A DNA stretch of 64,000 nt, from assembly GCA_027080345.1 (NCBI GenBank), contig JALWSB010000042.1:22967-86966 (forward strand), written 5' to 3'. Position 1 is the first letter of the stretch; the number at the start of each line of letters is the position of its first letter. The notes under the pieces were generated by a model. It worked only from the letters and a program-made list of their open reading frames with translations. It did not search any database and was not told the origin of the DNA. Below are positions 2,060-33,051 of the stretch, in pieces. This stretch comes from Robiginitomaculum sp. Lineage in GTDB: Bacteria; Pseudomonadota; Alphaproteobacteria; Caulobacterales; Maricaulaceae. The position numbers were made by a program, and so were the translations under genes.

Positions 2060-3415
2060 TTATCCGGCGCGCACTTTTTGCAAGAAGTCCTGCACCTGAC
2101 CGCGCATGGTCTCAGCCTGTTTGCCAAGTTCACCGGCCGCATCAACCACATTGCCCGACGCCGCGCCGGTCTCATTGGCCCCTTCCAGCACTTCGGCAAT
2201 GTTTTTGGAAACGTCTTGCGTACCGATTGCCGCTTCTTGGGTATTGCGGGCAATTTCCTGGGTCGCGGCGGACTGCTCTTCAACGGCGGCATTAATGGCC
2301 ACCGAAACCTCGTTCATCTCATCAATTGTGGCGCGAATAGAGGTAATCGCCTCGACCGACTGACCGGTAATTTCCTGCATGCTTTGAATTTGTGCGGCGA
2401 TATCTTCGGTCGCCTTGGCCGTCTGGGTGGCCAGGGATTTAACTTCCGAGGCAACAACCGCAAAGCCGCGCCCGGCCTCGCCGGCCCGCGCCGATTCAAT
2501 GGTCGCATTAAGCGCCAACAGGTTGGTTTGTTCGGCAATATCGGAAATCATATTAACTACCAGACCGACTTTTTCCGCCGCTTTGGCCAAAGATTCGATG
2601 GTGTCATTGGTGGTTTGCGCCCGCGTTACCGCCTGACTGGCAATCTCGGTGGAATGGGAAACCTGTTGGGCAATTTCGCTGACCGACGAGCCCATTTCTT
2701 CAGCCGCCGTGGCGACAACCGAAACATTGGCGGTGGCTTCTTCGGCGGCCGCCGACACAGTGGTGGATTTTTCCGATGTGTGTTCAGCGGTTTTGGCCAT
2801 GGTCTGCGCCGTTGTTTCCAGCTCGGTTGCCGCGGCGGCGACCGATTCAACAACGCCCATCACATTTTGCTCGAATGTGTCGGCCATTTCTTCCATAATG
2901 CGGTTTTTCTCCGCTTCGGTTTCTTCCAGATAAATGGAAATGGCAAAATCCATATCCAGCATTGCCGCCTTGGTAAGGGCGTTGATATAAAGCTCTCTTT
3001 TGTCGGCATTCTTGTCGCCACCAAGCCCTTTACCACTAAATTCCTTGGCAACAAAAACCGTTAACTCGGTCAAAATCATCGCATAACCGGCAATATACCA
3101 GCGTGGCTCAAGCCCCAGCCGGGCATGCACCTTGCCAATGGTGCGCACAGAGTTGACATAAGATTCATCAAACGTGCCGGTGGCAATATTCATCCAGTGG
3201 TCAAGCTGCTTTTGTTTGGCATGTTCCATCATGCCCGGCGTGGTGAAAAACCGCGCAACCTGCGGCCATTGGCGGATTTTGTCATAAAAAGCATCCAGAA
3301 TGCCCGGCAATTGCGCGGCAATATACGGTGACAATTCGCGCAAGGCTTCATCACAGCGCCCCCGCTCAATGCCGATAAATTTCATCCGCTCGTCAATGGC
3401 GATGGTATCTGTCAT
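2060..3415 (-). CDS. Globin-coupled methyl-accepting chemotaxis protein (HemAT-like soluble aerotaxis transducer)
   Basis: C-terminal MCP signalling domain with the conserved hairpin tip ([37 protein letters not shown]). N-terminal ~150 aa align by eye with globin-coupled sensors (DAFYDKI...; [19 protein letters not shown] resembles the HemAT proximal-His helix). No TM segment. ORF-track start 3496 trimmed to ATG 3415 ([11 protein letters not shown]), which has a GAGGGA RBS upstream. Confidence 0.85.
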
Positions 3416-3620
3416 GATCTGGTCCCTCTGGTCACAATAAGTTTGGGCGGCCAGCAAACAGATTCTCCCAATCCAGCCAGCGCCTTGAAAAGGCATAAGA
3501 AGGTGATTTGGTTACTAAATGATTAGCAAGAGCGTATTGCCAAAACACAATTAATACGTGTATTTTTATACAATGAATACCCACGTAAAGGTTGCAGGGT
3601 ATGGTGAAAAATCCATAGAT

Positions 3621-9001: not shown

Positions 9002-9192
9002 ACTCTTCCCTTAAGACGTCCGGCACATGCACCGGTCTTGATAAGGGCGCAAGTGTGCCGGAGCCACCGATAAAAGAAAAGAGGCAGGTGCATGTTGCGC
9101 AAAAAGAAAATTAAAAAAAGCCGTTTTCCTTTTGTAAATACTTAAAGTTGTATTTATACGAATCGCTACCATTAACCCAAAGGAATATCGCC

Positions 9193-10365
9193 ATGCCCGA
9201 TGCCCACCCGCAAACAAATACAAAAAGCAAAACCGCCAAACCCCAGACGGTAAAAACAAGGACTGGCATTACCCTGCCGGAAAAACTGACCGGGCGGCTT
9301 GATGATATAGGGCATCAGGTTCGCACCTCACTGACGGATATTATGGGCATGGCGCGGCTGTTGCAGGAAACCGCCTTGAACGAGGAGCAAGCTGATTATG
9401 CCGACACCATTACCCGCTCCAGCCACGAATTGTTATTGCTGGTGGATAATTGCCTTGATCTGGAACGATTGGAAAATGGCACTTTGGGGGTCAGTGAAGA
9501 ACAGTTTGGAATCACCGAGGCCCTGTTATCGATGATTGAACGCATCCGCCCGACAGCGGCGGCCGCCGCCATGCCGATCAGTCTTGAATTTGCCCCGGAC
9601 ATTGATCACCACATTTGTTGCGACAAGGCCCGGCTTTCACAAATGGTTTACAACCTTGCCGCCTATCTTATTGCCAACAGCCAAAAGGGCGTGTTGCGCA
9701 TGGCCGCGTCTTTAAGTGAGGACGAATGGGGCGATCATTTAACGCTGGTTTTGAGCGCCGGCAAACCTTTAGAGACAAAAACAGATAGTGAAAAGCAAGG
9801 GAATATCGCCCTTGAAATGAGTAAAAAACTGGCCCGGCTGATGGGCGGTGACATCACTATTGAGCAACAGGAAAAGCAAAACATTTGCGCCACCGTTCAC
9901 ATTCGCGTTTCCACCACAGCCCAGGAAGAAGAAAACGCTGAACCGGAAAGAAAAGTCCGCCTGCTTGTGGCCGAAGACAGCCGCGCCAACCAACGCCTGA
10001 TTGGCCTGATCCTCTCCAAACTTGGCTATGACTATGACATGGTTGCCAATGGTGCCGAAGCCGTCGACGCGATTAATACCAGCCATTTTGATATGATCCT
10101 GATGGACCTGCACATGCCGGTTATGGACGGGTTTGCCGCCACCCGGGCCATTCGGGCGCTGGACGATGGGCGTGCCCGCACGCCGATTATTGCCCTGACA
10201 GCCGATGTCAGACCCCAGGCCCGCACCGAAGTTTTGAGCGCGGGCATGGATGCTTATCTGATCAAGCCCATTGATGTGCCCAAGCTGGCCCAGACAGTCG
10301 AAGACATGATGCTGCGCAATCGCACCGGGGGGACGCATGTGCCGGTCCAGCGCGCCAGCGCCTGA
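9193..10365 (+). CDS. Soluble HisKA - degenerate HATPase-like - receiver protein (hybrid kinase-like, probable phosphotransfer protein)
   Basis: H-box IGHQVRTSLTDIMGM. C-terminal REC (RLLVAEDSRANQ...DMILMDLHMPVMDG...ALTADV...KPID). By eye the N, G1 and G2 ATP-binding boxes are degenerate (see findings). TTG start 9148 trimmed to ATG 9193, which has an AAGGA RBS. Confidence 0.7.
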   Translation: MPDAHPQTNTKSKTAKPQTVKTRTGITLPEKLTGRLDDIGHQVRTSLTDIMGMARLLQETALNEEQADYADTITRSSHELLLLVDNCLDLERLENGTLGVSEEQFGITEALLSMIERIRPTAAAAAMPISLEFAPDIDHHICCDKARLSQMVYNLAAYLIANSQKGVLRMAASLSEDEWGDHLTLVLSAGKPLETKTDSEKQGNIALEMSKKLARLMGGDITIEQQEKQNICATVHIRVSTTAQEEENAEPERKVRLLVAEDSRANQRLIGLILSKLGYDYDMVANGAEAVDAINTSHFDMILMDLHMPVMDGFAATRAIRALDDGRARTPIIALTADVRPQARTEVLSAGMDAYLIKPIDVPKLAQTVEDMMLRNRTGGTHVPVQRASA

Positions 10366-10443
10366 GCAAAACGCTCACGCTGGCGTGCTTTGCGCCGATC
10401 ACCCAAAACTTACCAATATGGGTGTGTTGCCCGCCATCAAAAC

Positions 10444-10484
10444 CTTTGGACTTCTTTAACTTTGGTTAACGGGATTCCCATAGC
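10444..10484 (+). promoter_or_regulatory. Conserved ctrA upstream block, copy 1: TTAAC-N5-TTAAC direct repeat plus GANTC (GATTC)
   Basis: CTTTGGACTTCTTTAACTTTGGTTAACGGGATTCCCATAGC. TTAAC at 10456-10460 and 10466-10470. GATTC at 10473-10477. Only 4 mismatches to the block at 11371-11411. Confidence 0.5.
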
Positions 10485-10556
10485 CTGCAAATACGTTAAT
10501 AATACCATATCAGAAGCGGCCAAAGCCGCTTGGCGACAATTTAAAGGGAGGGGCTC

Positions 10557-11246
10557 ATGCGGGTACTCTTGATTGAGGATGATCACGCCACGGCACAAAT
10601 GATCAAATTGATGTTGAAATCAGAAGGCTTTGTCATCGATACAACCGAGCTGGGCGAAGAGGGTGTCGATATTGGTAAAATCTATGATTACGATATCATT
10701 CTTCTGGATTTGCAATTACCGGATATGCCCGGCTCTGAAGTCCTCAAGAAATTACGCCTTTCCAAGGTGGAAACCCCGGTCATTATTTTGTCGGGAACCT
10801 CTGACACCGAAGTGAAGATCAAAAACCTGGGATTTGGTGCGGATGATTATCTGACCAAACCTTTTAACAAAGGCGAGCTGATAGCCCGTATCCGCGCCGT
10901 GGTGCGGCGCTCCAAAGGTCATGCCCAATCGCTCATTACCACCGGGCCGGTTTGCGTCAATCTTGATGCCAAAACCGTTGAGATCAATAAACAGCGCATA
11001 CACCTGACCAGCAAGGAATATGAGATTCTGGAACTCTTATCCTTGCGTAAAGGATCAACCCTGACCAAGGAAATGTTCCTCAATCACCTTTATAACGGTA
11101 TGGATGAACCGGAACAGAAAATCATTGACGTGTTTATCTGCAAATTGCGTAAGAAAATTGCCGATGCCACTGGCAATAAAGACTTTATTGAAACCGTCTG
11201 GGGGCGCGGCTATGTGCTGAATGACCCCAAAGAAGAAGCGGCATAG
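10557..11246 (+). CDS. ctrA: Cell-cycle/motility response regulator CtrA, copy 1 (OmpR family)
   Basis: 229 aa. Near-collinear with CtrA as I remember it (MRVLLIEDD...[10 protein letters not shown]...[12 protein letters not shown]...[11 protein letters not shown]...[48 protein letters not shown]...[11 protein letters not shown]). Strong RBS AAAGGGAGGGG. Confidence 0.9.
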
Positions 11247-11277
11247 ACGAAAACACATAACATAGAGCACATTGAAA

Positions 11278-11303
11278 ACGGCCCCCTTCGGGGGTCGTTT
11301 TTT
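11278..11303 (+). terminator. Rho-independent terminator after ctrA copy 1
   Basis: ACGGCCCCC-TTC-GGGGGTCGT followed by a T6 run. Confidence 0.7.
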
Positions 11304-11370
11304 ATTTAACCGGCAATGGCCTGCGCTTTTTTCTTTCAAATATGAACACTTTTTTACGCGCCGCCAGAAT

Positions 11371-11411
11371 CTTTGGATTTGTTTAACTTTGGTTAAGGGG
11401 ATTCACATAGC
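11371..11411 (+). promoter_or_regulatory. Conserved ctrA upstream block, copy 2: TTAAC-N5-TTAAG plus GANTC
   Basis: CTTTGGATTTGTTTAACTTTGGTTAAGGGGATTCACATAGC. TTAAC at 11383-11387, TTAAG at 11393-11397, GATTC at 11400-11404. Confidence 0.5.
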
Positions 11412-11423
11412 GTAACGATGGAG

Positions 11424-11431
11424 TTAACCAT
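11424..11431 (+). promoter_or_regulatory. Perfect CtrA half-site TTAACCAT upstream of ctrA copy 2
   Basis: Read directly (gagTTAACCATgacg), 51 nt upstream of the ATG. No equivalent upstream of copy 1. Confidence 0.35.
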
Positions 11432-11481
11432 GACGCAGAAGAGCAAATAAAGTGATTCGGCGACAGTAAAGGGAGGGGCTC

Positions 11482-12171
11482 ATGCGGGTTCTCTTGATCG
11501 AGGATGATCGCGCAACAGCGCAAATGATTGAACTGATGTTAAAGCCGGAAGGGTTTATCATCGACACAACAGAACTGGGAGAAGACGGCGTCGAAATCGG
11601 CAAGATTTATGATCACGACATTATCCTTCTGGATCTGCAATTACCGGACATGTCCGGCTCTGATGTGTTAAAACAATTACGGCTGGCCAAGGTGGAAACA
11701 CCGGTGTTGATCCTGTCGGGCACCACCGATACCGAAGTTAAAGTCAAAAACCTGGGCTCTGGCGCAGACGATTATCTGACCAAACCTTTCCACAAGGATG
11801 AACTGGTCGCCCGCATCCGCGCCGTGGTGCGGCGCTCCAAAGGCCATGCCCAATCGCTCATCACCACCGGTTCGGTTTGTGTTAATCTTGATGCCAAAAC
11901 CGTCGATGTAAACAAACAGCGCGTCCATTTGACCGGCAAGGAATACCAGATGCTGGAGCTTTTGTCCTTGCGCAAGGGGACAACCTTGACCAAGGAAATG
12001 TTCCTCAACCACCTTTATGGTGGCATGGATGAGCCGGAACTGAAAATCATTGATGTATTTATCTGCAAATTGCGCAGAAAACTGGCCAATGCCACCGGCG
12101 GTGAACACTTTATCGAAACCGTTTGGGGGCGCGGCTATGTCCTGCGCGACCCGGAAAGAGAAGCCGCATAA
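11482..12171 (+). CDS. ctrA: Response regulator CtrA, copy 2 (tandem paralogue)
   Basis: 229 aa with no indels relative to copy 1. About 37 substitutions by hand count. Phospho-acceptor context [10 protein letters not shown] is retained. Same RBS as copy 1. Confidence 0.9.
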
Positions 12172-12193
12172 ACCCTCGCGCGACACCATGATG

Positions 12194-12220
12194 AAAACGG
12201 CCCCTCGCGGGGCCGTTTTT
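12194..12220. terminator. Bidirectional terminator between ctrA copy 2 and cheR
   Basis: AAAACGGCCCC-TCGC-GGGGCCGTTTT, a perfect 11-bp stem flanked by A-run and T-run. Confidence 0.75.
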
Positions 12221-12257
12221 ATGCCTGAATTATCGTAAAAACGAGGACTGCCCTCTA

Positions 12258-13091
12258 TTAAGCGACTTTCGCGGCCGGACGGTCTTTGCGCACATAAAGC
12301 CCGCGTTTTCCCGGCACAGGCGCAAACGCATCGCTTAGCCCCATAACCGTTTCTGCCGCCCCCAAAAACAAATACCCGTCCGGAGCCAACGCCTGAGACA
12401 GGCGATTAAGAATATCTGATTTGGTGGCCTGATCGAAATAGATCAGGACATTGCGGCAGAAAATAACATCAAAAGTGCCCATGGTGCGAAAGTTTTCCAG
12501 AAGATTGAACTTTCTAAACGTGATGTTTTGCCGCAAAGACGGATCGATCCGCCACAAATCGCCAGCCTTTTCAAAATATTTGACCAGCAATTGCACCGGC
12601 AAACCCCGTTGCACTTCGAATTGCGTATAAAGGCCGGTTTTGGCTTTTTCCAACACCTTGTCAGAAATATCTGTGGCCAGAATATCTACATTCATACCGT
12701 TCATGCGCGGCGCTTCTTCCTTGGCGATCATGGCGATCGAATAAGGTTCCTGGCCACTGGATGCAGCGGCGCACCAGATTTTGGCTTTCGCACCGGGGCG
12801 CCGGTTGGCGCTTAAATGCGGAATGACCTCCGTTTTGAACAATTCAAACGGCGTTTTGTCACGAAAGAAAAATGTTTCATTGGTGGTCATCGCTTCGGTG
12901 ACCTGCCAGTTCAGCCCCTCATTGGGCCGGGTGCGCATGGCGCGCACCAACTCCTCGACCGAACCATACCCTTCGCGCCGGGCAATCGGTGACAAACGGC
13001 TATCCAGAAGATAGCCTTTGTCAGGCGACAATACGTGGCCGGACTTCTTTTTGAGCATTTGAACAAGAAATGCGAAGTCTTCTGTATTCAT
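12258..13091 (-). CDS. cheR: Chemotaxis protein methyltransferase
   Basis: 277 aa. CheR N-domain plus a SAM methyltransferase (IWCAAASSGQEPYSIAM, VIFCRNVLIYF). The ATG overlaps the cheB stop (ATGA). Confidence 0.93.
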   Translation of the reverse strand: MNTEDFAFLVQMLKKKSGHVLSPDKGYLLDSRLSPIARREGYGSVEELVRAMRTRPNEGLNWQVTEAMTTNETFFFRDKTPFELFKTEVIPHLSANRRPGAKAKIWCAAASSGQEPYSIAMIAKEEAPRMNGMNVDILATDISDKVLEKAKTGLYTQFEVQRGLPVQLLVKYFEKAGDLWRIDPSLRQNITFRKFNLLENFRTMGTFDVIFCRNVLIYFDQATKSDILNRLSQALAPDGYLFLGAAETVMGLSDAFAPVPGKRGLYVRKDRPAAKVA

Positions 13092-14206
13092 TTTACCTGT
13101 TCTCCACTAACCATACGCAAAACCGTTGGTGCAACTTGTTTTAAGGGTTGAATGCTCTGGGCAAGACCCGCCCTGGCGATTGAGCCGGGCATGCCCCAAA
13201 CCACAGAAGTAGCTTCGTCCTGCGCAATAATGGCGGCCCCGGTTTTCACCATATTTTCCGCCCCCGCGCAGCCATCATGCCCCATGCCGGTCAACACAAC
13301 GCCCAGCGCTTTATTGCCATAAATTTCAGCGGCAGAACGAAACATCGGATCAACCGCCGGTCGGCAATAATTCTCTGGCGGACGTTGATCCAGCCCGATC
13401 ACAACGGTGGCGCCCTTGCGCCGCACCGTCATGTGATAATCACCCGGTGCCAAATAGACCCCGTTGGCCTTGACCGGCATGCCATCACGCCCCTCGACCA
13501 CCAGTTTACGCGAGGCCTTGGTCAGGTGTTCGGCCAGAACCTTGGTAAAGGCCTTTGGCATGTGCTGGGTAATAAAAATTGGAATATCAAGTTTTGGTCC
13601 CAAAACGGCCATAACATCACGCAAAGCCTGCGGGCCGCCGGTAGATGAGCCGATAAACAGGGCCTGCGCTTTGGGGCGGGGCCCTTTTTGTGCGGGCACG
13701 CGGTTGACCCTGGCCGGCGGGGCGGCCGTGGCGCGCGCAGGCGCGGCGCGCCGGTGCTTGACCTCGCCCAAGGCGCGTACTTTGGCGATCAGGGCATCGC
13801 GAAAATCATTGGCACTGGCCAAAGTACTTGATTCAGGTTTGGGAACATAATCAGCCGCGCCTTTCGATAAGGCGCGCAAGGTAATATCGGCATTGCGATG
13901 CGTCAGTGTCGAGGCCATAACCACTTTGCTTGACGGAGAGGCTTTGAGGATTTGCGGCAAGGCGCTCAAGCCATCGAGCCGGGGCATTTCAATATCGAGA
14001 ATAACCACGTCGGGTTTATATTGCTGCGCCGCTTTGATGGCCAATTCGCCATCACTGGCCTTGGCAACGATTTCAATATCTTTTTCCGCGCTCAGCCAGC
14101 GCGCAACCAAGCCGCGCACAACCGCCGAATCATCCGTTACGAGAACGGTGATTGTCTTGCCAGACGATGCCTCCGAAGGCGCCGCATATGAAGGGTTGTG
14201 CACCAT
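13088..14206 (-). CDS. cheB: Chemotaxis response regulator protein-glutamate methylesterase
   Basis: REC (VLVTDDSAVVR...VVILDIEMPRLDG) plus an esterase domain (GSSTGGPQAL, GMGHDG). TTG start 14233 trimmed to ATG 14206, 4 nt after the cheY stop. Confidence 0.92.
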   Translation of the reverse strand: MVHNPSYAAPSEASSGKTITVLVTDDSAVVRGLVARWLSAEKDIEIVAKASDGELAIKAAQQYKPDVVILDIEMPRLDGLSALPQILKASPSSKVVMASTLTHRNADITLRALSKGAADYVPKPESSTLASANDFRDALIAKVRALGEVKHRRAAPARATAAPPARVNRVPAQKGPRPKAQALFIGSSTGGPQALRDVMAVLGPKLDIPIFITQHMPKAFTKVLAEHLTKASRKLVVEGRDGMPVKANGVYLAPGDYHMTVRRKGATVVIGLDQRPPENYCRPAVDPMFRSAAEIYGNKALGVVLTGMGHDGCAGAENMVKTGAAIIAQDEATSVVWGMPGSIARAGLAQSIQPLKQVAPTVLRMVSGEQVK

Positions 14207-14210
14207 ATGC

Positions 14211-14576
14211 TCAGACCAGCCCCGCTTCAGCAAATTTGGCGTTCAGAATGTCTCCGTCAAAGGGTTTCATAATATATTCATTGGCCCCGGCGCGCAGTGC
14301 TTCGGAAATGTGGCCCATATCATTTTCGGTTGTGCAAAAAACAACAATCGGCTGATCGCCACCACTTTCTTTGCGCAACGCGCGTAAAAAATCGATGCCG
14401 CTCATCACCGGCATATTCCAGTCCAGAAGAATGGCGTCAGGCATGGTTTTGCGGCAATGCTCCAGCGCCTGCGCGCCGTCAGCGGCCTCGTCGCAATCAA
14501 ATTCCATACCTTCGAGAATTCTGCGGGCCACTTTGCGGATAACCCGTGAATCGTCAACTACAAGGCAGTTTTTCAT
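14211..14576 (-). CDS. cheY: Chemotaxis single-domain response regulator
   Basis: 121 aa REC (CLVVDDSRVIR...AILLDWNMPVMSG...YIMKPF). Confidence 0.9.
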   Translation of the reverse strand: MKNCLVVDDSRVIRKVARRILEGMEFDCDEAADGAQALEHCRKTMPDAILLDWNMPVMSGIDFLRALRKESGGDQPIVVFCTTENDMGHISEALRAGANEYIMKPFDGDILNAKFAEAGLV

Positions 14577-14608
14577 AGCTCTTCCATCCCTATATGCACC
14601 CTGAATAA

Positions 14609-15094
14609 TCAGGCTGCTTGTGCGCTTGGCGTCTCGACATTCAACATCTTCTTGATGTCGAGAATAATCAGCAACCGTTTATCAAGACGGTAAATACCTT
14701 TTGACACCGCTTGCCATTGCGGATCCATATTGCACGGAACTGCTTCACAATTCCTTTCCAAGAGGCGTAAAACTTCACCGACCTTGTCAATCAACAGGCT
14801 GTAGGACTCATTTTCGATCTCCACACCAACGGCCATGCAAGGTTTGTCCTCGTCTTCGCGGGGCGGCAGGCCGAGGCGCTGGCGCGCATCAATTGCCGTG
14901 ACAATACGGCCCCGTAAATTCAGAACCCCACGCACTTCGGGCGGCGCCATGGGCACGGCGGTCAGGCATTGGGGTTGAAATACGTCATGAATATCCGTGA
15001 CCTCGATACCGAAAAGCTGATCAGCAATTTCAACGGTTACATATTCCTGGCTGTCCGCATTGATGTGGATGGATTGTTCTTCGGACTCGCTCAT
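14609..15094 (-). CDS. cheW: Chemotaxis coupling protein
   Basis: 161 aa CheW-like domain (GVLNLRGRIVTAIDARQRLGL). The ATG overlaps the cheA stop (ATGA). Confidence 0.9.
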   Translation of the reverse strand: MSESEEQSIHINADSQEYVTVEIADQLFGIEVTDIHDVFQPQCLTAVPMAPPEVRGVLNLRGRIVTAIDARQRLGLPPREDEDKPCMAVGVEIENESYSLLIDKVGEVLRLLERNCEAVPCNMDPQWQAVSKGIYRLDKRLLIILDIKKMLNVETPSAQAA

Positions 15095-17850
15095 GCCGCT
15101 TCTCCTTGGGATTGTAAGACATAATCGATTGTGGATATGAGCGATTCGCGGTCCGCTTTACGCACAATATCGGTAAAGGCCTCTGTTGCGCCGATCCGGT
15201 CGAGATCATTTTGCGCCAGCGCCGAAAGCGCCAGCCGCGGTACATGGGACCAGCGCTCGTCATCGGCAAGTTTGGTGGCAAAGGCGACGCCGGTTTCGTC
15301 GGGCATTTCAATATCAGAAACAATGACATCAAATTCAGCACCCCCAGTATTCAGCTCCCACGCCTGGGCGGCGCTGCTGACCGCGGTCACCTCATAGCCC
15401 GCCGCGCTGATTAATGGCGCGACCATATTGCGGAAAAACGCATTATCATCGACCAGCAAAACCCGGCGCTTTTGAATCGATTCCGATTCATCACCCTTTT
15501 TGGCAACCTCAAACCAGTCATGGAAGGCCTGGGCCAGGTAATACCCGACATCAATAACCTCGGTGGCCTTGCCTTTAAGAACCGCTGCACCGATCACCCC
15601 TGGTGCGCTGCCGCTCATTTCAACATCAAGAACTTCTTCAACAATATCAATAATTTCATCAACAACCAGGCCGACAGAGCGCCCCCCATCAGTAAAGACC
15701 AGAACCGACTGATGGGTTTTATCCGCCAGTTCCGCATAGCCGCCGACATGAACCAGCGGCATCAGGCCGCCACGATATTGCACGAGCTGTTCGCCATTAA
15801 CCTCTTCCACCGTGCTGGTTTCTATTTCCTCCAACCGGGTAACCAGGCTCAACGGTACCGCTTTTGGTTCATTACCACCTGCGTTGAATAACAGCATGGC
15901 TGTTTTCTCGCTCCCGGATTCCACGGCACGGTCTTCGGCCTTTGTGGTTTTTTCAATCTCGTCGCTGGCGCTGACGGCCTTGGCCACGCCATTTGGATCA
16001 ATGATCATAATCACCGATCCATCGCCCAAAATCGTATTGCCAGAGAATACGGAAATATTGCTCAATATATTGGCCAGCGGTTTAACAACAATTTCTTCTG
16101 TGTCGAAAACATTATCGACGACAACCCCGAAACGCTGTTCCCCAACCACCATAACCACAACAAAAGCGGTGTCACTTTGTGTCTGCGCTCTGGGCAGACC
16201 CAAAACATCGGCAAGATCGACCAACGGCAGCAAGGTGTCGCGCAAACGCAGCACCCGGGTGTCGTGAATATGCTCAACCTGATGCTCCCCGTCAGGGCTG
16301 GTACGCACCAGTTCCAGAATGGAAAGTTGCGGAATGGCAAAGCGGCCATTTGCTGATTCGACAATCAGCGCCGAAACAATCGCCAGGGTAAGCGGAATTT
16401 TGATTTTAAATGTTGTGCCTTCGCCATCAACCGATGACAAATCTATCGTGCCGCCAATTTGCTCAATATTCGAGCGCACAACATCCATGCCCACGCCGCG
16501 CCCGGAAATCGATGTCACCTTGGCCGCCGTTGACAGGCCGGCGGCAAAAACCAGCCGGTGGATCTGGTTTTCAGTCATTGTCTGCGCTTCGGCTTCGGTA
16601 ATCACCCCGTTATCAATCGCTTTGCGACGAATTTTGGAGGTGGGCAGCCCGGCCCCGTCATCGGCAATTTCGATAACAATATGCCCGCCTTCATGATAGG
16701 CGGAAAGGTGGATCTGTCCGGCCTCAGGCTTGTTGGCCGCGCGGCGAATGTCCGCCGGTTCAATACCGTGATCACAGGAATTACGCACCATATGGGTTAA
16801 AGGATCACGAATCAGCTCCAGCACCTGCCGGTCCAGCTCTGTGCTTTCCCCACTCATATGCAGGTCAATCGCCTTGCCAACCGCTTTGGACGAATCGCGC
16901 ACGATCCGGGGTAGTTTTTTCCAGGCATTGCCGATTGGCTGCATCCGGGTTTTCATCACCCCGTCCTGCAATTCCGCGGTCACGCTGGACAAACGCTGCA
17001 AGGGTACTTTTATATCGCTATCGTCCATTGTGCGCACAATTTGCATTAATTGATTGCGGGTCAGGACCAGTTCCGAGACCATGGTCATCAGGTCTTCGAT
17101 AACATCAACATTGACGCGAATGGATTGTGCCACCAGCGGATGGTCACCACCGCCCTGTTTGGCTTTTTCCGCTTCGCGTTTCTTTTTCTCTTCTTCGGCT
17201 TTTTTGGCTTCGGCTTCAGCTATTCTGGCTTCCTCTGCCAGTTTATCCAGATCCGGGCCATCGGCCTCCTGGAAGGCCTTTTCCAGATCCGCCAGCGATA
17301 CCTCGCCCGGGCGCAAAGGACGATTGAGATCAGCATCGTATTCACCACCTGATTCACTGGACTCTACCGGCGCTTCGGTTTGCTCTGGCGCGGCCTCCAC
17401 GGTTTCTTCAGGCGCTTCAGCCACCGTTTCAGGTTCAGCCACCGCTTCAGTGTCTTGCGCCACCGCGGCCCCTTTGCCTTCCGAGGCTTCGACCAGCGCC
17501 GCAATCATATCGGCGTCATCGCCTTCTGGCTCACTTTGTTCGGCTTCCAGATGATCCAGAATAACCCGCAACTGGTCAATCGATTCAAGGATCAATGTGA
17601 CAGAGGCCGGGTTGGGCATCAGTGTTTTATCACGATATTTACCCAGCAGCGTTTCGCCGGCATGGGCCAGAGCTTCCAACCGGGGCAGTCCCAAAAAGCC
17701 GCACGTCCCCTTGATCGTATGGACCAGACGGAAAATATTATTCAGGGTTTCCTCATCGCCCGGGTCCTGCTCAAACTTGATCAGTTCCGCATCAACGGTT
17801 TCAAGGCTCTCAGCGGTTTCGGTCAGAAATTCGCCTAATAAATCATCCAT
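15091..17850 (-). CDS. cheA: Chemotaxis histidine kinase CheA with C-terminal receiver domain (CheA-REC hybrid)
   Basis: 919 aa. Hpt (FRLVHTIKGTCGFLGL), acidic/lysine-rich linker, dimerisation plus HATPase (IADDGAGL, GRGVGMDVV), CheW-like domain, and C-terminal REC (RVLLVDDNAFFR...DVIVSDIEMPDETG). Confidence 0.93.
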   Translation of the reverse strand: MDDLLGEFLTETAESLETVDAELIKFEQDPGDEETLNNIFRLVHTIKGTCGFLGLPRLEALAHAGETLLGKYRDKTLMPNPASVTLILESIDQLRVILDHLEAEQSEPEGDDADMIAALVEASEGKGAAVAQDTEAVAEPETVAEAPEETVEAAPEQTEAPVESSESGGEYDADLNRPLRPGEVSLADLEKAFQEADGPDLDKLAEEARIAEAEAKKAEEEKKKREAEKAKQGGGDHPLVAQSIRVNVDVIEDLMTMVSELVLTRNQLMQIVRTMDDSDIKVPLQRLSSVTAELQDGVMKTRMQPIGNAWKKLPRIVRDSSKAVGKAIDLHMSGESTELDRQVLELIRDPLTHMVRNSCDHGIEPADIRRAANKPEAGQIHLSAYHEGGHIVIEIADDGAGLPTSKIRRKAIDNGVITEAEAQTMTENQIHRLVFAAGLSTAAKVTSISGRGVGMDVVRSNIEQIGGTIDLSSVDGEGTTFKIKIPLTLAIVSALIVESANGRFAIPQLSILELVRTSPDGEHQVEHIHDTRVLRLRDTLLPLVDLADVLGLPRAQTQSDTAFVVVMVVGEQRFGVVVDNVFDTEEIVVKPLANILSNISVFSGNTILGDGSVIMIIDPNGVAKAVSASDEIEKTTKAEDRAVESGSEKTAMLLFNAGGNEPKAVPLSLVTRLEEIETSTVEEVNGEQLVQYRGGLMPLVHVGGYAELADKTHQSVLVFTDGGRSVGLVVDEIIDIVEEVLDVEMSGSAPGVIGAAVLKGKATEVIDVGYYLAQAFHDWFEVAKKGDESESIQKRRVLLVDDNAFFRNMVAPLISAAGYEVTAVSSAAQAWELNTGGAEFDVIVSDIEMPDETGVAFATKLADDERWSHVPRLALSALAQNDLDRIGATEAFTDIVRKADRESLISTIDYVLQSQGEAA

Positions 17851-17954
17851 GGAATATACTCCCCCCTTGGGTCACAGCCGCCATAAGGCCATCCGGTTAT
17901 GTCCATCATTAACCGGAGTGGTTAAGAGGGTCCTAAAATGCTCTGAATACAGAG

Positions 17955-17985
17955 ATTTATATACACTTTTTACGTGTATATAAAT
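17955..17985. promoter_or_regulatory. Perfect 12-bp AT-rich inverted repeat between the ChpT-like gene and cheA
   Basis: ATTTATATACAC-TTTTTAC-GTGTATATAAAT. Abuts the ChpT-like stop codon. A second small palindrome CTCTG-AATA-CAGAG lies at 17941-17954. Confidence 0.4.
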
Positions 17986-18638
17986 TATTCGCTATTTTTG
18001 GTAAGAATCGTGAAGTCAACACCATCAGGTGTTTCAACCGCTTCAGCCCGCCCGCCAAGCTCCCGCGCCAGCAATCCAGTGTAAAAAGGCTGGATGCTAT
18101 GGCCATCAAACCCGTCTTCAGGGCATTGACCTTGCAAGATGGATTGAATTGTTGGTTTGAGTATGGTTTTGCCGCCGCGTACCGCAATGTGGACGCGTGC
18201 CATTGAATTACCTTCAATAGTAATTTCATTTTTTTTCAGCGCCGCCTCCTCGGCAAGAAGAGCCAGGTTAAGCAAAAGCCGGGCTTCAACTTTTGTCACT
18301 TCGGCAAAAGCGATACGCCAATCGAGCTTGATGTCAGAAATTTTATACAAATCTTCGACCACCTCTCTTAGTGTGTCTGTAAAAATATTGCCCTTAATGG
18401 CTGTCGCCGAGCCAAAAGCCAGTCGGGAAAAATTAAGTTTGGCCATGGCCAGATTGACATGCTCGTGTAGCATCTGACTTGCGTCTTCACGCAAACTGCC
18501 TTTGGCATGTTCTTCCAGATACTCCAGCGTCATTCCTATCGTACCCAGAGGCCCGGCAAAATCATGGCCCATCCGCGAACATAATATGGCCGCAAGGTCC
18601 AGGGGCGATATATCATAGGGTTCAATATTTTCGGGCAT
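17985..18638 (-). CDS. ChpT-family histidine phosphotransferase (HPTransfase-like)
   Basis: 217 aa, soluble. LAAILCSRMGHDFAGPLGTIGMTLEYL resembles the ChpT H-box as I remember it from Caulobacter (LAARLCHDFISPASAI). A second motif FSRLAFG is present. No ATP-binding boxes. Confidence 0.7.
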   Translation of the reverse strand: MPENIEPYDISPLDLAAILCSRMGHDFAGPLGTIGMTLEYLEEHAKGSLREDASQMLHEHVNLAMAKLNFSRLAFGSATAIKGNIFTDTLREVVEDLYKISDIKLDWRIAFAEVTKVEARLLLNLALLAEEAALKKNEITIEGNSMARVHIAVRGGKTILKPTIQSILQGQCPEDGFDGHSIQPFYTGLLARELGGRAEAVETPDGVDFTILTKNSE

Positions 18639-22566: not shown

Positions 22567-23133
22567 TCGGCACTGTTTCGTTTTGAAACAGCGCGTAAGG
22601 TCCGCCGCGATAATATTATGGTTAATTGCCTCTTAACGGCACAAAACCACCCTTTCTTTGCCAAAATTCAAGGCACGGGTTTTGCGCGCCATTGCGCATG
22701 GCAGCTATGGTATCATCTTTGGTCTATCCGGTTGCGGCGCAAAACCCGCCGCGGCGCCGCACGCGCAAAAACGCGGCAAAAAACCCACAAAAATCCATGC
22801 TGCCGGTCCCGGTTCAGCCGCGCACCCGCCACACCCCGTTGCCCGTATCAGGAAAGACCACTTTCTATCAGCCTGATTGCCGCTATCAGGCGCAGTGCCT
22901 TGCCGGATCTCCACGCCGGGGCCTTAAGGGCGACCCGCGTGAACAAGCGCGCATTCATGCGCTTTACGCCGCGCCCCCGGGCACAAAAGTGGCGCGCACA
23001 GTGCGCTGGGCTTAAGACCGTATATTTAAATACAAACTTATATAAAATTTATCCGCCGCGTTTACGTCATAATAAGGCGATGCTGTTAGGCTCTCTTCTG
23101 ACACGGATGTTACCGCAGTTTTGAGACGCCCTT

Positions 23134-24483
23134 ATGAAGTCACTTGCCGCCCATATTGATACACTGGAACCGCGCCGGTTCAGTGGCCGCATCACCGCCG
23201 TTAATGGCATGATGGTCGAAGCATCCGGCCCGGCAAGTGCACTGGAACTTGGCGCGCGGGGTGCGGCGCAAACCCGCCACGGCCCCGTCTCCTGCGAAGT
23301 TGTCGGCTTTCGCGGCTCCCATGCCCTGATGATGCCTTTCGGGCCGATGGAAGGCATGCGCGCCGGAACCCGGATGGACATTGACCCGGATGGGGCCTTT
23401 GTGCGCCCGAGCAGTGCCTGGCTTGGGCGAGTGGTTGATGCGTTTGGCACCCCGCTGGATGACGGCCCGCCGCTGATAAATGGTATGCACGCTTACCGCC
23501 TGCGGGGCCGTCCGCCCGCCGCCCACACCCGCACACGGGTTGGCGAGCGCATGGACACGGGCGTGCGCGCCATCAACACGTTTACGCAAATATGCAAAGG
23601 CCAGCGCATGGGTGTTTTTGCCGGCTCCGGGGTTGGCAAATCGGTATTGATGTCAATGCTGGCGAAAAATGCTGATTGTGATGTGACAGTTATCGGCCTG
23701 ATTGGCGAACGGGGCCGCGAGGTCAAGGAATTTATCGATGATGTGCTGGGGCCAGAGGGCTTGAAGCGCGCCGTTGTTGTTGTCGCCACGTCTGATGAAC
23801 CGGCCTTGAAACGCCGCCAGGCGGCGCAACTGACCCTGACCATATCAGAATTTTTCCGTGATCAGGGCAAGCATGTTTTATGCTTGATGGATTCGGTTAC
23901 CCGCTTTGCCATGGCCCAGCGCGAAATTGGTCTGGCCGCAGGCGAGCCACCAACCACCAGAGGCTACACGCCATCGGTCTTTAATGAATTGCCACGGCTT
24001 TTGGAGCGCGCCGGGCCGGGCAGACGCACCGATGGCCGCCCGGAAGGGGCGATTACCGGTATTTTTACCGTTCTGGTCGATGGCGATGATCATAATGAAC
24101 CCATTGCCGACGCGGCGCGGGGTATTCTGGATGGTCATATTGTCATGGAGCGGGCGATTGCCGAACGGGGCCGCTTTCCCGCCATTAACATCCTTAAAAG
24201 CATTTCGCGCACCATGCCCGGATGCTGCCGCGACGATGAATTGCCGCTGATCAAAGAGGCCCGCCGGGCCTTGGCTGATTATGCCGATATGGAAGAACTG
24301 ATCCGGCTTGGGGCCTATGCCCGCGGATCAAACGAGGGCGTTGATCGCGCCATCGCATTGAATGAACCGCTGGAAGCGTTTTTAGCGCAGAGTAAAGAAG
24401 AAGCCACCTCAACCGAGGAGAGCTTCCACCGCCTGCGTGCGATTATGGGTGACAATAACGGACCGGAACAACCGGTCGTATGA
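23134..24483 (+). CDS. fliI: Flagellum-specific ATP synthase
   Basis: 449 aa. Walker A GSGVGKS, Walker B LCLMDS, F1/T3SS ATPase fold. Confidence 0.93.
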
Positions 24484-27366: not shown

Positions 27367-28758
27367 TTAAAGCGCGCCTGCGGCCCGGCTGTCCCCCGGT
27401 TGCGGAACCTCCACGCCATGGCCGGCATAAAGTTTGAGTTTATTGCGCAAGGTTCTTATTGAAATGCCCAAAATATTCGCCGCATGGGTGCGGTTGCCAA
27501 GGCAGTGATCGAGCGTATCCAAAATAAGGTCCTGTTCGACCTGGGCCACGGTTTGCCCGACGACGCCCAGTGCGGCGCGCTGCGCCGCCCCGGCCGCATG
27601 ATGGCTCATTGCATTATCAGCGCCGTGCCCGGTATGGGTCGGCGCCGCGCCGATGACCGAGCCGTCAGGAGCACGTAAATCCTCTGCGGCAATAACATCG
27701 CCAGTAGCCAGAAGAACCGCACGATGCATGGAATTTTCCAGCTCCCGCACATTGCCCGGCCAGCTCCTGTTTAGCAGAACATGGCGCGCCTCATCGCTGA
27801 TCGGGCGCGCCGGAACGCCATTGGCCGCCGCGTACGTAGCGCAAAAATGATCGGCCAGGGCCACAATATCGCCGGGCCGTTCACGAAGCGGCGGCAATTG
27901 CACATTGATGACGTTCAGCCGAAAAAATAAATCTTCGCGAAAGCTGCCATCCGCGACCGCTTTTTGCAGATCGCGATTGGACGTTGCCAATACGCGAATA
28001 TCCACCTTGACCGGCTTGGTTCCGCCAACCCGGTCGATCTCGCGCTCTTGCAAGGCACGCAATAATTTGGCCTGCAGGCGCGTATCCATTTCGGAAATTT
28101 CATCGAGCAGCAACGTGCCGCCGCTGGCCTCTTCAAACTTGCCTACGCGGCGGGCAACCGCGCCGGTGAACGCGCCTTTTTCATGCCCGAACAATTCTGA
28201 TTCGAGCAAATTATCAGGAATCGCCGCACAGTTTATCGAGATAAAGGGTTTGGCCGCCCGTTTTGACTTGCTGTGAATATGCCGCGCGATCACTTCCTTG
28301 CCCGATCCCGATTCACCGGTAATCAAAATAGACGCATTCGACGGGGCCACCTGTTCGGCCAGATCAACAATTTTACGCATGACCGGATCGCGGGCAATCA
28401 TCGGGCGCGAGTCATCTGAAACCGCCGCCAAAACTGCCGCAATCAGCTCCGCATCCGGGGGCAAGGGAATAAATTCACGCGCCCCGGCACGGATGGAATC
28501 CGCCGCTTGCGTCGGTGTCGCTGACACACCGCAAGCAACGATTGGAATATGAATGCGTTCGTTTTGTAACGCCTCGTCCAGCGCCTTGATATCATGGCTG
28601 ACATCAACCATTAAGAGGTCCGCCCCCTGCCCGGCCCGCAAGGCCTTCAAGGCCGTCGCAACCCCATCCACATGGGCCACTTTTGCGCCGCTTTTGACGG
28701 CAATGGATGTGGCCTCGCCAAGCTGTCCGCCCAGACTGCCTATAATCAATACCCGCAT
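27367..28758 (-). CDS. flbD: Sigma-54-dependent flagellar transcriptional activator (FlbD/FleQ type)
   Basis: 463 aa. Atypical N-terminal receiver-like domain (no DD pocket: MRVLIIGSLGG), AAA+ core (GESGSGKE, GAFTGA, ESELFGHEKGAFTGA), and a C-terminal Fis-type HTH. AAGGAG RBS. Confidence 0.8.
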   Translation of the reverse strand: MRVLIIGSLGGQLGEATSIAVKSGAKVAHVDGVATALKALRAGQGADLLMVDVSHDIKALDEALQNERIHIPIVACGVSATPTQAADSIRAGAREFIPLPPDAELIAAVLAAVSDDSRPMIARDPVMRKIVDLAEQVAPSNASILITGESGSGKEVIARHIHSKSKRAAKPFISINCAAIPDNLLESELFGHEKGAFTGAVARRVGKFEEASGGTLLLDEISEMDTRLQAKLLRALQEREIDRVGGTKPVKVDIRVLATSNRDLQKAVADGSFREDLFFRLNVINVQLPPLRERPGDIVALADHFCATYAAANGVPARPISDEARHVLLNRSWPGNVRELENSMHRAVLLATGDVIAAEDLRAPDGSVIGAAPTHTGHGADNAMSHHAAGAAQRAALGVVGQTVAQVEQDLILDTLDHCLGNRTHAANILGISIRTLRNKLKLYAGHGVEVPQPGDSRAAGAL

Positions 28759-32745: not shown

Positions 32746-33051
32746 CTAGCGATAATCCTGTACTTTTGTTGCCCGCAGACCGGCTAATCCATGCTTGTCG
32801 ATCATATGCTGCCAGCCAACAAACTCTTCAACTGTCAAACGATAGCGGCGACAGGCATCTTCCAGCGTCAAAAGCCCGCCGCGCACCGCAGCCACAACCT
32901 CTGCCTTACGCCGGATGACCCAACGTCGGGTTTCCGGTTTGGGCAGATCGGCCAGCGTCAAAGGACTGCCGTCCGGCCCAAGTACCAGCGTTTCTCTTGT
33001 TTTGCGTGCGTAACCCATTTCACCATACCCCATTGTTTTTTGTTCGGACAT
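32746..33051 (-). CDS. sciP: SciP-like small HTH protein (DUF1153 family; CtrA-associated regulator in Caulobacter)
   Basis: 101 aa. RRWVIRRKAEVVAAVRGGLLTLEDACRRYRLTVEEFVGWQ matches my memory of SciP/DUF1153. It sits between fliF and flgE as in Caulobacter and has its own terminator. Confidence 0.6.
   Translation of the reverse strand: MSEQKTMGYGEMGYARKTRETLVLGPDGSPLTLADLPKPETRRWVIRRKAEVVAAVRGGLLTLEDACRRYRLTVEEFVGWQHMIDKHGLAGLRATKVQDYR

Follow-up and report, generated by a model that had tools for sequence, protein, structure and literature searches.

A conserved chpT-cheAWYBR-ctrA neighbourhood in alphaproteobacteria and a putative CtrA-dependent promoter of its Che1-type chemotaxis operon

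The closest described counterparts of the locus analyzed here are the CckA-ChpT-CtrA/CpdR phosphorelay of Caulobacter, Brucella, Sinorhizobium and Sphingomonas and the Che1 chemotaxis operon of Azospirillum brasilense (cheA1-cheW1-cheY1-cheB1-cheR1). Parts of both lie together in a 64,000-nucleotide stretch of a Robiginitomaculum sp. contig (JALWSB010000042.1), hereafter the window, in which a cluster at 9.2-18.6 kb carries the histidine phosphotransferase gene chpT, a cheAWYBR operon and two ctrA genes. CtrA is the central cell-cycle and motility regulator in alphaproteobacteria, and its inputs outside Caulobacter are an open question. The best explanation of the locus, to which we give a probability of about 0.6, is a regulator lying beside its regulon, in which CtrA would switch on the Che1-type flagellar chemotaxis operon that chpT and ctrA flank. 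The original prediction, made from the DNA letters, had proposed the reverse flow, a chemoreceptor-gated relay from the CheA receiver through ChpT into one or both CtrA copies, with coincidental juxtaposition as the alternative.

Layout of the locus and its closest counterparts

Genes were called from a six-frame open reading frame (ORF) list and from Pfam and NCBIfam profile searches of the window proteins, with lengths in nucleotides (nt) and amino acids (aa). The cluster contains the following features.

9193-10365, plus strand, protein of 390 aa with HisKA (51.6 bits), a degenerate CA domain and a receiver domain (REC; Response_reg, 87 bits)
10557-11246, plus strand, ctrA1 (NCBIfam CtrA equivalog, 392.3 bits against a cutoff of 350)
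11482-12171, plus strand, ctrA2 (NCBIfam CtrA equivalog, 403.9 bits against a cutoff of 350)
12258-13091, minus strand, cheR, methyltransferase with CheR and CheR_N domains
13088-14233, minus strand, cheB, REC and methylesterase (NCBIfam CheB, 414 bits against a cutoff of 293, and Pfam)
14211-14576, minus strand, cheY, single-domain response regulator (Pfam profile)
14609-15094, minus strand, cheW (PF01584, 103 bits)
15091-17850, minus strand, cheA, hybrid kinase of 919 aa (Pfam Hpt, H-kinase_dim, HATPase_c, two CheW-like domains and REC)
17922-17936, minus strand, CtrA-box-like element TTAGGACCCTCTTAA(CCA), also written TTAGGACCCTCTTAAcca, with one mismatch, in the chpT-cheA spacer
17985-18638, minus strand, chpT, 217 aa (PF10090, 76.4 bits against a cutoff of 22.9)

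The genes, coordinates and domains listed in the original prediction were all confirmed by the ORF list and the profile searches, and so were the junctions: ATGA overlaps join cheA to cheW and cheB to cheR, as read from the sequence, 32 nt separate cheW from cheY, and 4 nt separate cheY from cheB when cheB starts at the ATG at 14206, which is likely its start rather than 14233. The gene chpT lies upstream of cheA on the same strand and in the same direction, with a gap of 134 nt. Also borne out were the six Response_reg domains in the 9.2-18.6 kb cluster, CheA as the only protein of the region with HATPase_c above threshold, and the absence of MCP, CheD, CheZ and CheX genes from 9.2-18.6 kb. 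The HATPase_c match of the 9193-10365 protein is partial (18.3 bits against a cutoff of 26.4), and both CtrA proteins carry the REC and Trans_reg_C Pfam domains.

The assignment of the 217-aa protein to the ChpT family also stood up, and the protein is a genuine ChpT by its PF10090 match, its phospho-accepting histidine and its structural relatives. Its His25 (motif RMGHDF) is invariant in 16 homologues and falls on the CHD motif when aligned with 4QPJ and 4FMT, and the best Protein Data Bank (PDB) matches, 4QPJ and 4FMT/4FPP, are the Brucella and Caulobacter ChpT structures. The two NCBIfam ChpT models (NF046025 and NF046018) score it below their equivalog cutoffs: the Caulobacter model gives 147.5 bits (cutoff 225) and the Brucella/Rhizobium model 143 bits (cutoff 240). 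Azospirillum ChpT likewise falls under both cutoffs (131 and 112 bits), so the models are apparently clade-specific. The frame from chpT to ctrA is common to the window, Brucella, Mesorhizobium and Sinorhizobium, and the chpT-cheA pair is shared with Sphingomonas and Azospirillum; on the one Sinorhizobium meliloti replicon searched there was one chpT match. Because the Rhizobiales retain the same chpT-ctrA frame in reduced form, the window ChpT would by synteny be the positional orthologue of canonical ChpT and not a Che-dedicated paralogue. A canonical ChpT leads to the expectation of a CckA input encoded elsewhere in the genome, and by analogy ChpT is expected to take phosphate from the CckA receiver and give it to CtrA and CpdR.

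The likeness to the canonical relay extends to CtrA, which scores over the equivalog threshold, carries -AA at its C-terminus and has a promoter with a CtrA-like box, and to the convergent arrangement of chpT and ctrA seen in Brucella, Mesorhizobium and Sinorhizobium. The window differs from that relay in the five-gene che operon inserted between chpT and ctrA, in the tandem ctrA and in a ChpT under the equivalog cutoffs.

The Azospirillum che1 operon consists of the same five genes in the same order (PMC8561660). The likeness covers CheA architecture, with its C-terminal receiver and -AA tail, and the flanks, with chpT upstream and ctrA, fliI and fliJ downstream, and A. brasilense and the window share 57% identity in CheA, 73% in CheY and 71% in CtrA. 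The assignment of the window operon to a Che1-type class rests on the 57% CheA identity and on the identical organisation. In Azospirillum, by contrast, cheR and ctrA are separated by about 1.2 kb that holds small ORFs and a cold-shock gene, and ctrA is single. A membrane isoform, TMX-CheA1, has been described in an A. brasilense laboratory strain (PMC8561660); neither the window nor the Sp7 reference record has it. In the Sp7 record (L098:7943-8290; surveyed loci are cited by L numbers) the cheA of the five-gene cluster begins with the P1 domain, and since chpT ends 236 nt upstream of the ORF there is no room for an N-terminal seven-transmembrane (TMX) domain. The Azospirillum Che1 papers searched mention neither chpT nor ctrA. 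Azospirillum CheA1 and CheY1 regulate the swimming speed of the polar flagellum (PMC8100600), and since these orthologues act on the flagellar motor, the pathway of the window type is taken to be motor-directed.

Other described systems are more distant. The operon type presumably corresponds to evolutionary class F5 of the MiST/Wuichet-Zhulin scheme. In the Wsp system of Pseudomonas and the Che3 systems of Myxococcus and Rhodospirillum centenum, CheA is fused to a receiver and two-component genes lie beside the che cluster; there CheA phosphorylates an output regulator directly, and CheY signalling of the motor type is absent or secondary. The window differs from Wsp and Che3 in its highly conserved CheY and in an orthologous Azospirillum pathway that acts on the motor. 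All of its components belong to known families, namely a canonical ChpT, CtrA and a Che1-type operon.

Conservation of the neighbourhood and of the CtrA box

The neighbourhood was surveyed from both ends. In the ChpT-selected survey, one genome per species was scanned with a ChpT profile and the 80 returned loci were annotated with the window proteins; the scan pattern ended in CHD, and the GHD type of the window ChpT lies outside it. In the CheA-selected survey, metagenomes were scanned with a CheA profile and the sample was unbiased by chpT. Among the CheA-selected loci with at least 900 nt of upstream sequence, chpT lay directly upstream on the same strand in 53/62 (85%), with gaps of 106-377 nt. 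Where at least 5.5 kb of downstream sequence was present, cheW-Y-B-R followed in 32 of the 35 loci and ctrA in 18/35.

The full chpT-cheAWYBR order was found in Robiginitomaculum, Oceanicaulis, another member of the Maricaulaceae, Methylobacterium, Rhabdaerophilum and about 10 unclassified alphaproteobacterial metagenome-assembled genomes (MAGs), and in most of these loci ctrA and fliI come next. One metagenomic locus with a 40%-identical ChpT reads DUF4908, M23, chpT, cheA-REC, cheW, cheY, cheB, cheR, convergent ctrA, fliI and fliJ. Azospirillum lipoferum 4B has the order chpT, cheAWYBR, ctrA, fliI, fliJ, and A. brasilense Sp7 shows the same layout. In Sphingomonas parapaucimobilis the genes rpoH, rluA and chpT precede cheAWYBR after a 59-nt gap, with no ctrA after cheR. 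The layout thus recurs in Maricaulales, Hyphomicrobiales, Sphingomonadales and Rhodospirillales; it is not coincidental, and the conservation in four orders and in 53/62 CheA-selected loci refutes the chance juxtaposition that the original prediction had allowed for. No mention of chpT or ctrA linked with cheA or Che1 was found in the searchable literature, a mention in a subscription journal being possible, and the comparative pattern has apparently gone unremarked so far.

Reduced forms of the cluster were observed in several lineages. In Ochrobactrum-type Brucella, Mesorhizobium, Sinorhizobium and relatives, chpT is followed by a small CheY-like gene, a convergent ctrA and fliJ (instances of the small gene are L049:10799-11212, L091:7870-8238 and L034:10693-11157), and the chpT-CheY-like-ctrA series is also present in Hyphomicrobiaceae. 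The Rhizobiales gene product shares with the che-operon CheY the N-terminal signature MKxCxxVDDSxVIRKVAxRIL and looks like a relic of the operon's cheY. CpdR was considered as its identity and rejected, because NCBIfam gives no CpdR match and the protein resembles che-operon CheY. In the S. meliloti relic the acid pair DD has become DG, and in the classical-type Brucella loci (L044 and L050) the CheY-like gene is missing between chpT and ctrA. No studies of this gene were found in the literature searched. In Hellea, Litorimonas and Algimonas, chpT is accompanied by a degenerate CheA fragment of 290-347 aa, CheY and a CheR-like gene, which looks like a decayed Che1-type operon still attached to chpT. 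The fragment (L015:10750-11622; also L013, L016-L022, L024 and L031) has no Pfam match, and judged by eye it looks similar to the N-box region of the CheA ATPase domain. The simplest reading of these sequences would be an ancestral chpT-cheAWYBR-ctrA-fliIJ neighbourhood that was eroded in several lineages.

Genes other than those for motility were also observed near chpT. The gene rpoH lies close to it in Sphingomonas (L092:7607-9528), Sinorhizobium (L091:1157-3290) and Azospirillum (L096:144-1022), and a gene for an RluA-family pseudouridine synthase lies upstream of chpT in two cases, Sphingomonas and Sinorhizobium. As rpoH and rluA flank chpT in several genera, the conserved neighbourhood reaches beyond the motility genes. 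In A. lipoferum 4B a 601-aa histidine kinase is encoded on the strand opposite to chpT, some 670 nt upstream of it (L096:4706-6511); it is annotated as a hybrid kinase/response regulator, and its best partial NCBIfam matches are PdhS and DivJ.

The direction of control was read from the chpT-cheA spacer. The CtrA-box-like element of the window lies about 86-90 nt before the cheA ATG, the same distance being kept in the closest relatives (L003, L011 and L100), and it is likely a CtrA-dependent promoter element of cheAWYBR. The pattern TTAA-N7-TTAA with at most one mismatch was searched in 75 orthologous chpT-cheA spacers and in shuffled versions of them. Of the 75 spacers, 49 contained a box, which was perfect in 14; the shuffles averaged 2.8 and never exceeded 8, and in the same test control spacings gave 7-22 and control half-sites 0-15. 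The counterpart element in Azospirillum is GTAAGGTTCTCTTAA. In other alphaproteobacteria it is established that CtrA controls genes for chemotaxis and the flagellum (Brilli 2010, PMC2877005), and R. sphaeroides cheOp1 is under CtrA control (PMC9430884). CtrA activation of cheAWYBR is therefore supported by the conserved spacer box together with the control established elsewhere, and the box points to a flow of information from CtrA to che, the reverse of a CheA-to-CtrA relay. A second box lies before the flagellar genes.

22618-22636, plus strand, perfect CtrA box TTAATTGCCTCTTAA, overlapping a ATGGTTAA half-site (TTAACCAT), about 500 nt upstream of fliI and the only perfect box of the window
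23134-24483, fliI, in the flagellar cluster to the right of chpT

In the mechanism proposed here, ChpT would receive phosphate at His25 from a hybrid kinase whose gene lies elsewhere and which is expected to be CckA; judged by what is known of its family, ChpT would pass this phosphate to CtrA2 and probably to CtrA1. Phosphorylated CtrA (CtrA~P) would bind both the chpT-cheA spacer box and the one before fliI, as the motifs suggest, and would thereby switch on the chemotaxis operon and the flagellar genes. The Che proteins would form an ordinary receptor-coupled flagellar-motor pathway whose receptors, such as the protoglobin-MCP at 2060-3496, are encoded outside the cluster. Inside CheA, its C-terminal receiver would serve as a sink for phosphate or have a regulatory role, and the CheA -AA tail may be a ClpXP degron.

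Several observations weigh against CtrA control as the whole explanation. A recognisable box is missing from about a third of the 75 spacers, the window spacer box itself carries one mismatch, and the region upstream of chpT showed no CtrA box. Over the whole window the number of perfect boxes (1 against 0.64 expected) is not significant, and the enrichment shows only when the orthologous chpT-cheA spacers are pooled. No cckA, divL or cpdR was found in the 64-kb window, which is what the search covered, and this is a further difference from the canonical relay. Most genes of the CtrA regulon are not adjacent to chpT, and because 85% adjacency across orders is rare for a regulator and its target, something beyond co-regulation may maintain the chpT-cheA pair. 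The clumping and cell-length phenotypes of Azospirillum Che1 mutants, which arise "by an unknown mechanism" (PMC8561660), are unexplained by pure chemotaxis. Finally, a complete acid pocket in the CheA receiver is commoner in chpT-linked loci (63/74) than in unlinked ones (7/12; Fisher p = 0.04, kinship ignored), a weak hint toward coupling from this receiver to ChpT.

CheY and the CheA receiver as possible partners of ChpT

Direct signalling between the Che1-type pathway and the CtrA relay, through the CheA receiver or CheY, would let chemoreceptors tune CtrA~P, and on the sequences compared it seems unlikely, at about one chance in a handful. The form of it that survives best takes CheY as the partner of ChpT, either exchanging phosphate with it as CpdR does or modulating CckA-ChpT in the manner of DivK or Osp, and in either case tying motor signalling to the state of CtrA; we regard this form as improbable. 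It draws on the CheY-like gene that remains beside chpT after decay of the che genes in Rhizobiales, Hyphomicrobiaceae, Hellea and Litorimonas, on the che-operon signature and missing CpdR match of that relic, and on the unusual conservation of che-operon CheY, which is 87-88% identical between the window and L002 and L011, 73-74% identical to Azospirillum and 64-88% identical overall. Coupling by way of CheY is no less plausible than coupling by way of the CheA receiver, given that CheY is the gene retained next to chpT in decayed operons. A precedent is Osp of Rhodobacter sphaeroides, a single-domain receiver that controls CckA and is without the Mg-binding Asp pair (PMC9430884). Like DivK, which acts via DivL, and like Osp, the CheY-like protein is small and genetically tied to the CtrA pathway, and the S. 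meliloti relic resembles Osp in having no intact Mg-binding Asp pair. Osp has been reported only in Rhodobacterales, where its gene adjoins a TetR-family gene (PMC9430884), and it differs from the window CheY, a che-operon protein whose pocket is intact. Against CheY as the partner, the DD to DG change in S. meliloti may simply mark decay, the classical-type Brucella loci do without the gene, and Azospirillum CheY1 has a motor phenotype (PMC8100600).

The relay of the original prediction would run from CheA~P to its own receiver at D846, then to His25 of ChpT and on to CtrA1 and/or CtrA2, as a chemoreceptor-gated branch beside CckA. Multiple hybrid kinases reportedly feed ChpT in Sphingomonas melonis (Francez-Charlot 2015, as cited in PMC6472365), which counts for the relay. 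The domain order of the window CheA is P1(Hpt)-P3-P4-P5-second CheW-like-REC, with the C-terminus GEAA (15091-15096), and this architecture is matched domain by domain in all full loci. The acid pocket of its receiver is complete (D801 D802 / D846 / S876 / K898), as it is in 63/74 chpT-linked CheA proteins. Further points in favour of the relay are chpT as the immediate upstream neighbour in 85% of loci, a linkage stronger than is usual for co-regulation, and the unexplained effects of Azospirillum Che1 on cell length and clumping (PMC8561660).

The comparison across lineages speaks against it. The pocket is degenerate in 11/74 chpT-linked loci: Maricaulaceae have EA/D/G and a deletion, Methylobacterium and Rhabdaerophilum have ES/D/V, and some MAGs have DN or DD/E/A; in the Sphingomonas CheA no Pfam REC was recognised. 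In all of these lineages chpT still adjoins cheA, so the chpT-cheA linkage is independent of a phosphorylatable CheA receiver. The receiver also diverges fast, with 32-47% identity between orders, in contrast to the highly conserved CtrA receiver; its alpha-5 motif K(A/F)DRxxLIAAL is kept even where the pocket is lost. Its closest solved relatives are CheY-type receivers and not phosphorelay receivers, a comparison that is uninformative in itself. The conserved CtrA box indicates flow from CtrA to che, the Azospirillum Che1 orthologue acts on the motor, ChpT appears canonical by synteny, and no such wiring was found described in the searchable literature. A chemoreceptor-gated relay through the CheA receiver is accordingly no longer the meaning we give to the layout, and it is a shade less probable than the link through CheY. 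For the window organism itself, whose pocket is complete, a step from the CheA receiver to ChpT is neither supported nor excluded by the sequences.

The least probable alternative is inherited gene order without present-day function, with chpT and ctrA flanking a che operon that serves motility in the usual way. In its favour, unrelated neighbours are syntenic too (M23 and DUF4908 in the Maricaulales type, rpoH and rluA in Sphingomonas and Sinorhizobium), from which it follows that some neutral synteny persists, and ctrA can be reached downstream of the operon in only about half of the loci and is missing after cheR in Sphingomonas. It sits poorly with a chpT-cheA pair found in four orders and in 85% of loci chosen irrespective of chpT, kept through rearrangements of the surrounding genes, the window's own included, and with a CtrA-binding motif conserved inside the spacer.

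A separate tie to the CtrA pathway may lie in protein turnover. A C-terminal -AA was found in 93/100 CheA proteins of this class (L100-L179, L003, L011, L066, L096, L098 and others), and both window CtrA copies also end in -AA (EEAA and REAA). In Caulobacter CtrA, the C-terminal AA is needed for degradation by ClpXP. The tail common to these CheA proteins and CtrA suggests that CheAs of this class are ClpXP substrates, and their turnover could be tied to the ChpT-CpdR branch.

Tandem ctrA, flanking genes and significance of the neighbourhood

Two features of the window are lineage-specific, the tandem ctrA and the rearrangement beside the HisKA-pseudoCA-REC gene at 9193-10365. CtrA1 and CtrA2 share 84% aa identity and about 80% DNA identity, and each copy has its own promoter block and terminator. 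The following promoter elements were located.

10455-10469, plus strand, ctrA1 promoter block with TTTAACTTTGGTTAA, a one-mismatch CtrA box
11382-11431, plus strand, ctrA2 promoter block with the one-mismatch CtrA box TTTAACTTTGGTTAA and a TTAACCAT half-site at 11424

The one-mismatch box is identical upstream of both copies. CtrA2 is 84-85% identical to the single ctrA at the same position in L002 and L011, and ctrA2, which is convergent with cheR, is closer to the orthologues than ctrA1. By this comparison ctrA2 is the ancestral copy and ctrA1 its diverged tandem duplicate. As the relatives carry a single ctrA and the copies have diverged, with ctrA2 nearer to the orthologues, the duplication is lineage-specific and not recent.

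In the HisKA-pseudoCA-REC protein the G1 box of the CA domain is gone and the G2 box has decayed to NIAL, and its best PDB match, the hybrid kinase 6QRJ, covers the DHp and receiver domains only. Orthologues (P0024-P0037; 51-57% identity) with HisKA and REC occur in Robiginitomaculum-like genomes, and HATPase_c is not recognisable in them either. They form a conserved family whose members, about 365 aa long, combine HisKA with a degenerate CA domain and a receiver, and whose gene always adjoins a Na/Ca exchanger gene in Robiginitomaculaceae-like genomes. The family is probably a pseudokinase of the phosphatase or phosphotransfer type, judged by its domain sequences. In L093-L095 the gene follows those for protoglobin-MCP, uvrC, folB and the Na/Ca exchanger, as in the window, and no ctrA or che genes were found near the orthologues. 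The genes directly after the orthologue lie inverted in the window at 41.7-47 kb (a segment from M20 to a HAD-hydrolase), and relative to L093-L095 a ctrA-che-chpT-flagellar block of about 31 kb (10400-41730) is inserted after the HisKA-pseudoCA-REC gene. The gene fliI lies on the chpT side of the block in the window and on the ctrA side in L011. Because a rearrangement in the window lineage placed the block there, the adjacency is uninformative on function.

A one-mismatch CtrA box TTAAAGTTGTATTTA (9142-9156) with a TTAACC half-site precedes the HisKA-pseudoCA-REC gene by about 40 nt; in the regions upstream of its orthologues in L093-L095 there was none. The role of the protein as a sink or phosphatase branch of the module, suggested in the original prediction, was rejected, as the orthologues have neither ctrA or che genes nearby nor an upstream CtrA box and the gene is a neighbour only through the rearrangement. 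Of that interpretation, the non-coincidental layout and the genuine ChpT stand; the CheA-to-CtrA reading is no longer favoured, and the HisKA branch has been given up.

A further element lies between chpT and the spacer box.

17956-17984, minus strand, perfect palindrome with an 11-bp inverted repeat, TTTATATACAC-gtaaaaa-GTGTATATAAA, directly after the chpT stop codon

The palindrome is AT-rich and has no T-tract, and it was not seen in orthologous chpT-cheA spacers. A hairpin acting there as a canonical intrinsic terminator was rejected, and the palindrome is also not conserved; binding of a protein and weak termination are possible roles.

The right flank of chpT comprises genes for an M23 peptidase, a DUF4908 protein and a putative short-chain dehydrogenase, and phaR. 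Beyond phaR a flagellar cluster contains fliI, fliJ, flhA, a sigma-54 activator, fliN, fliG, fliF, DUF1153, flgE, flgD, fliK, flgK and a flagellin-like gene. The DUF1153 protein (32746-33051, 136.8 bits) is encoded between fliF and flgE and belongs to what we take to be the family containing the CtrA inhibitor SciP, and the sigma-54 activator of the FlbD type (27367-28758) adjoins flhA; the two fit a Caulobacter-like CtrA/SciP/FlbD flagellar hierarchy. The left flank holds genes for a Na/Ca exchanger, a short-chain dehydrogenase, folB, uvrC and a protoglobin-MCP. The last (2060-3496) encodes a HemAT-like haem-based aerotaxis receptor, keeps its uvrC and Na/Ca exchanger neighbours in the relatives L093-L095, and is a candidate input receptor of the che operon. 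Judged from the best-matching loci, the source organism appears related to Robiginitomaculaceae (Maricaulales).

The genes chpT, a Che1-type operon, ctrA and fliI-fliJ form a conserved neighbourhood in at least four orders, and the Rhizobiales locus of chpT, a response regulator and ctrA can be read as a reduced remnant of the chpT-che-ctrA cluster. The conserved CtrA-type che promoter extends the idea that motility control is an ancestral role of CtrA. If there is no coupling beyond this, the locus would be an ordinary member of the CtrA regulon. If the Che1-type pathway does signal to the relay, the coupling would tune motility, attachment, cell division or cell length through CtrA~P, and it would account both for the CheY-like relic of the Rhizobiales and for the clumping and cell-length effects seen in Azospirillum Che1 mutants. 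A. brasilense Sp7, for which che1 mutants exist, is a ready system for studying chemosensory-CtrA coupling.

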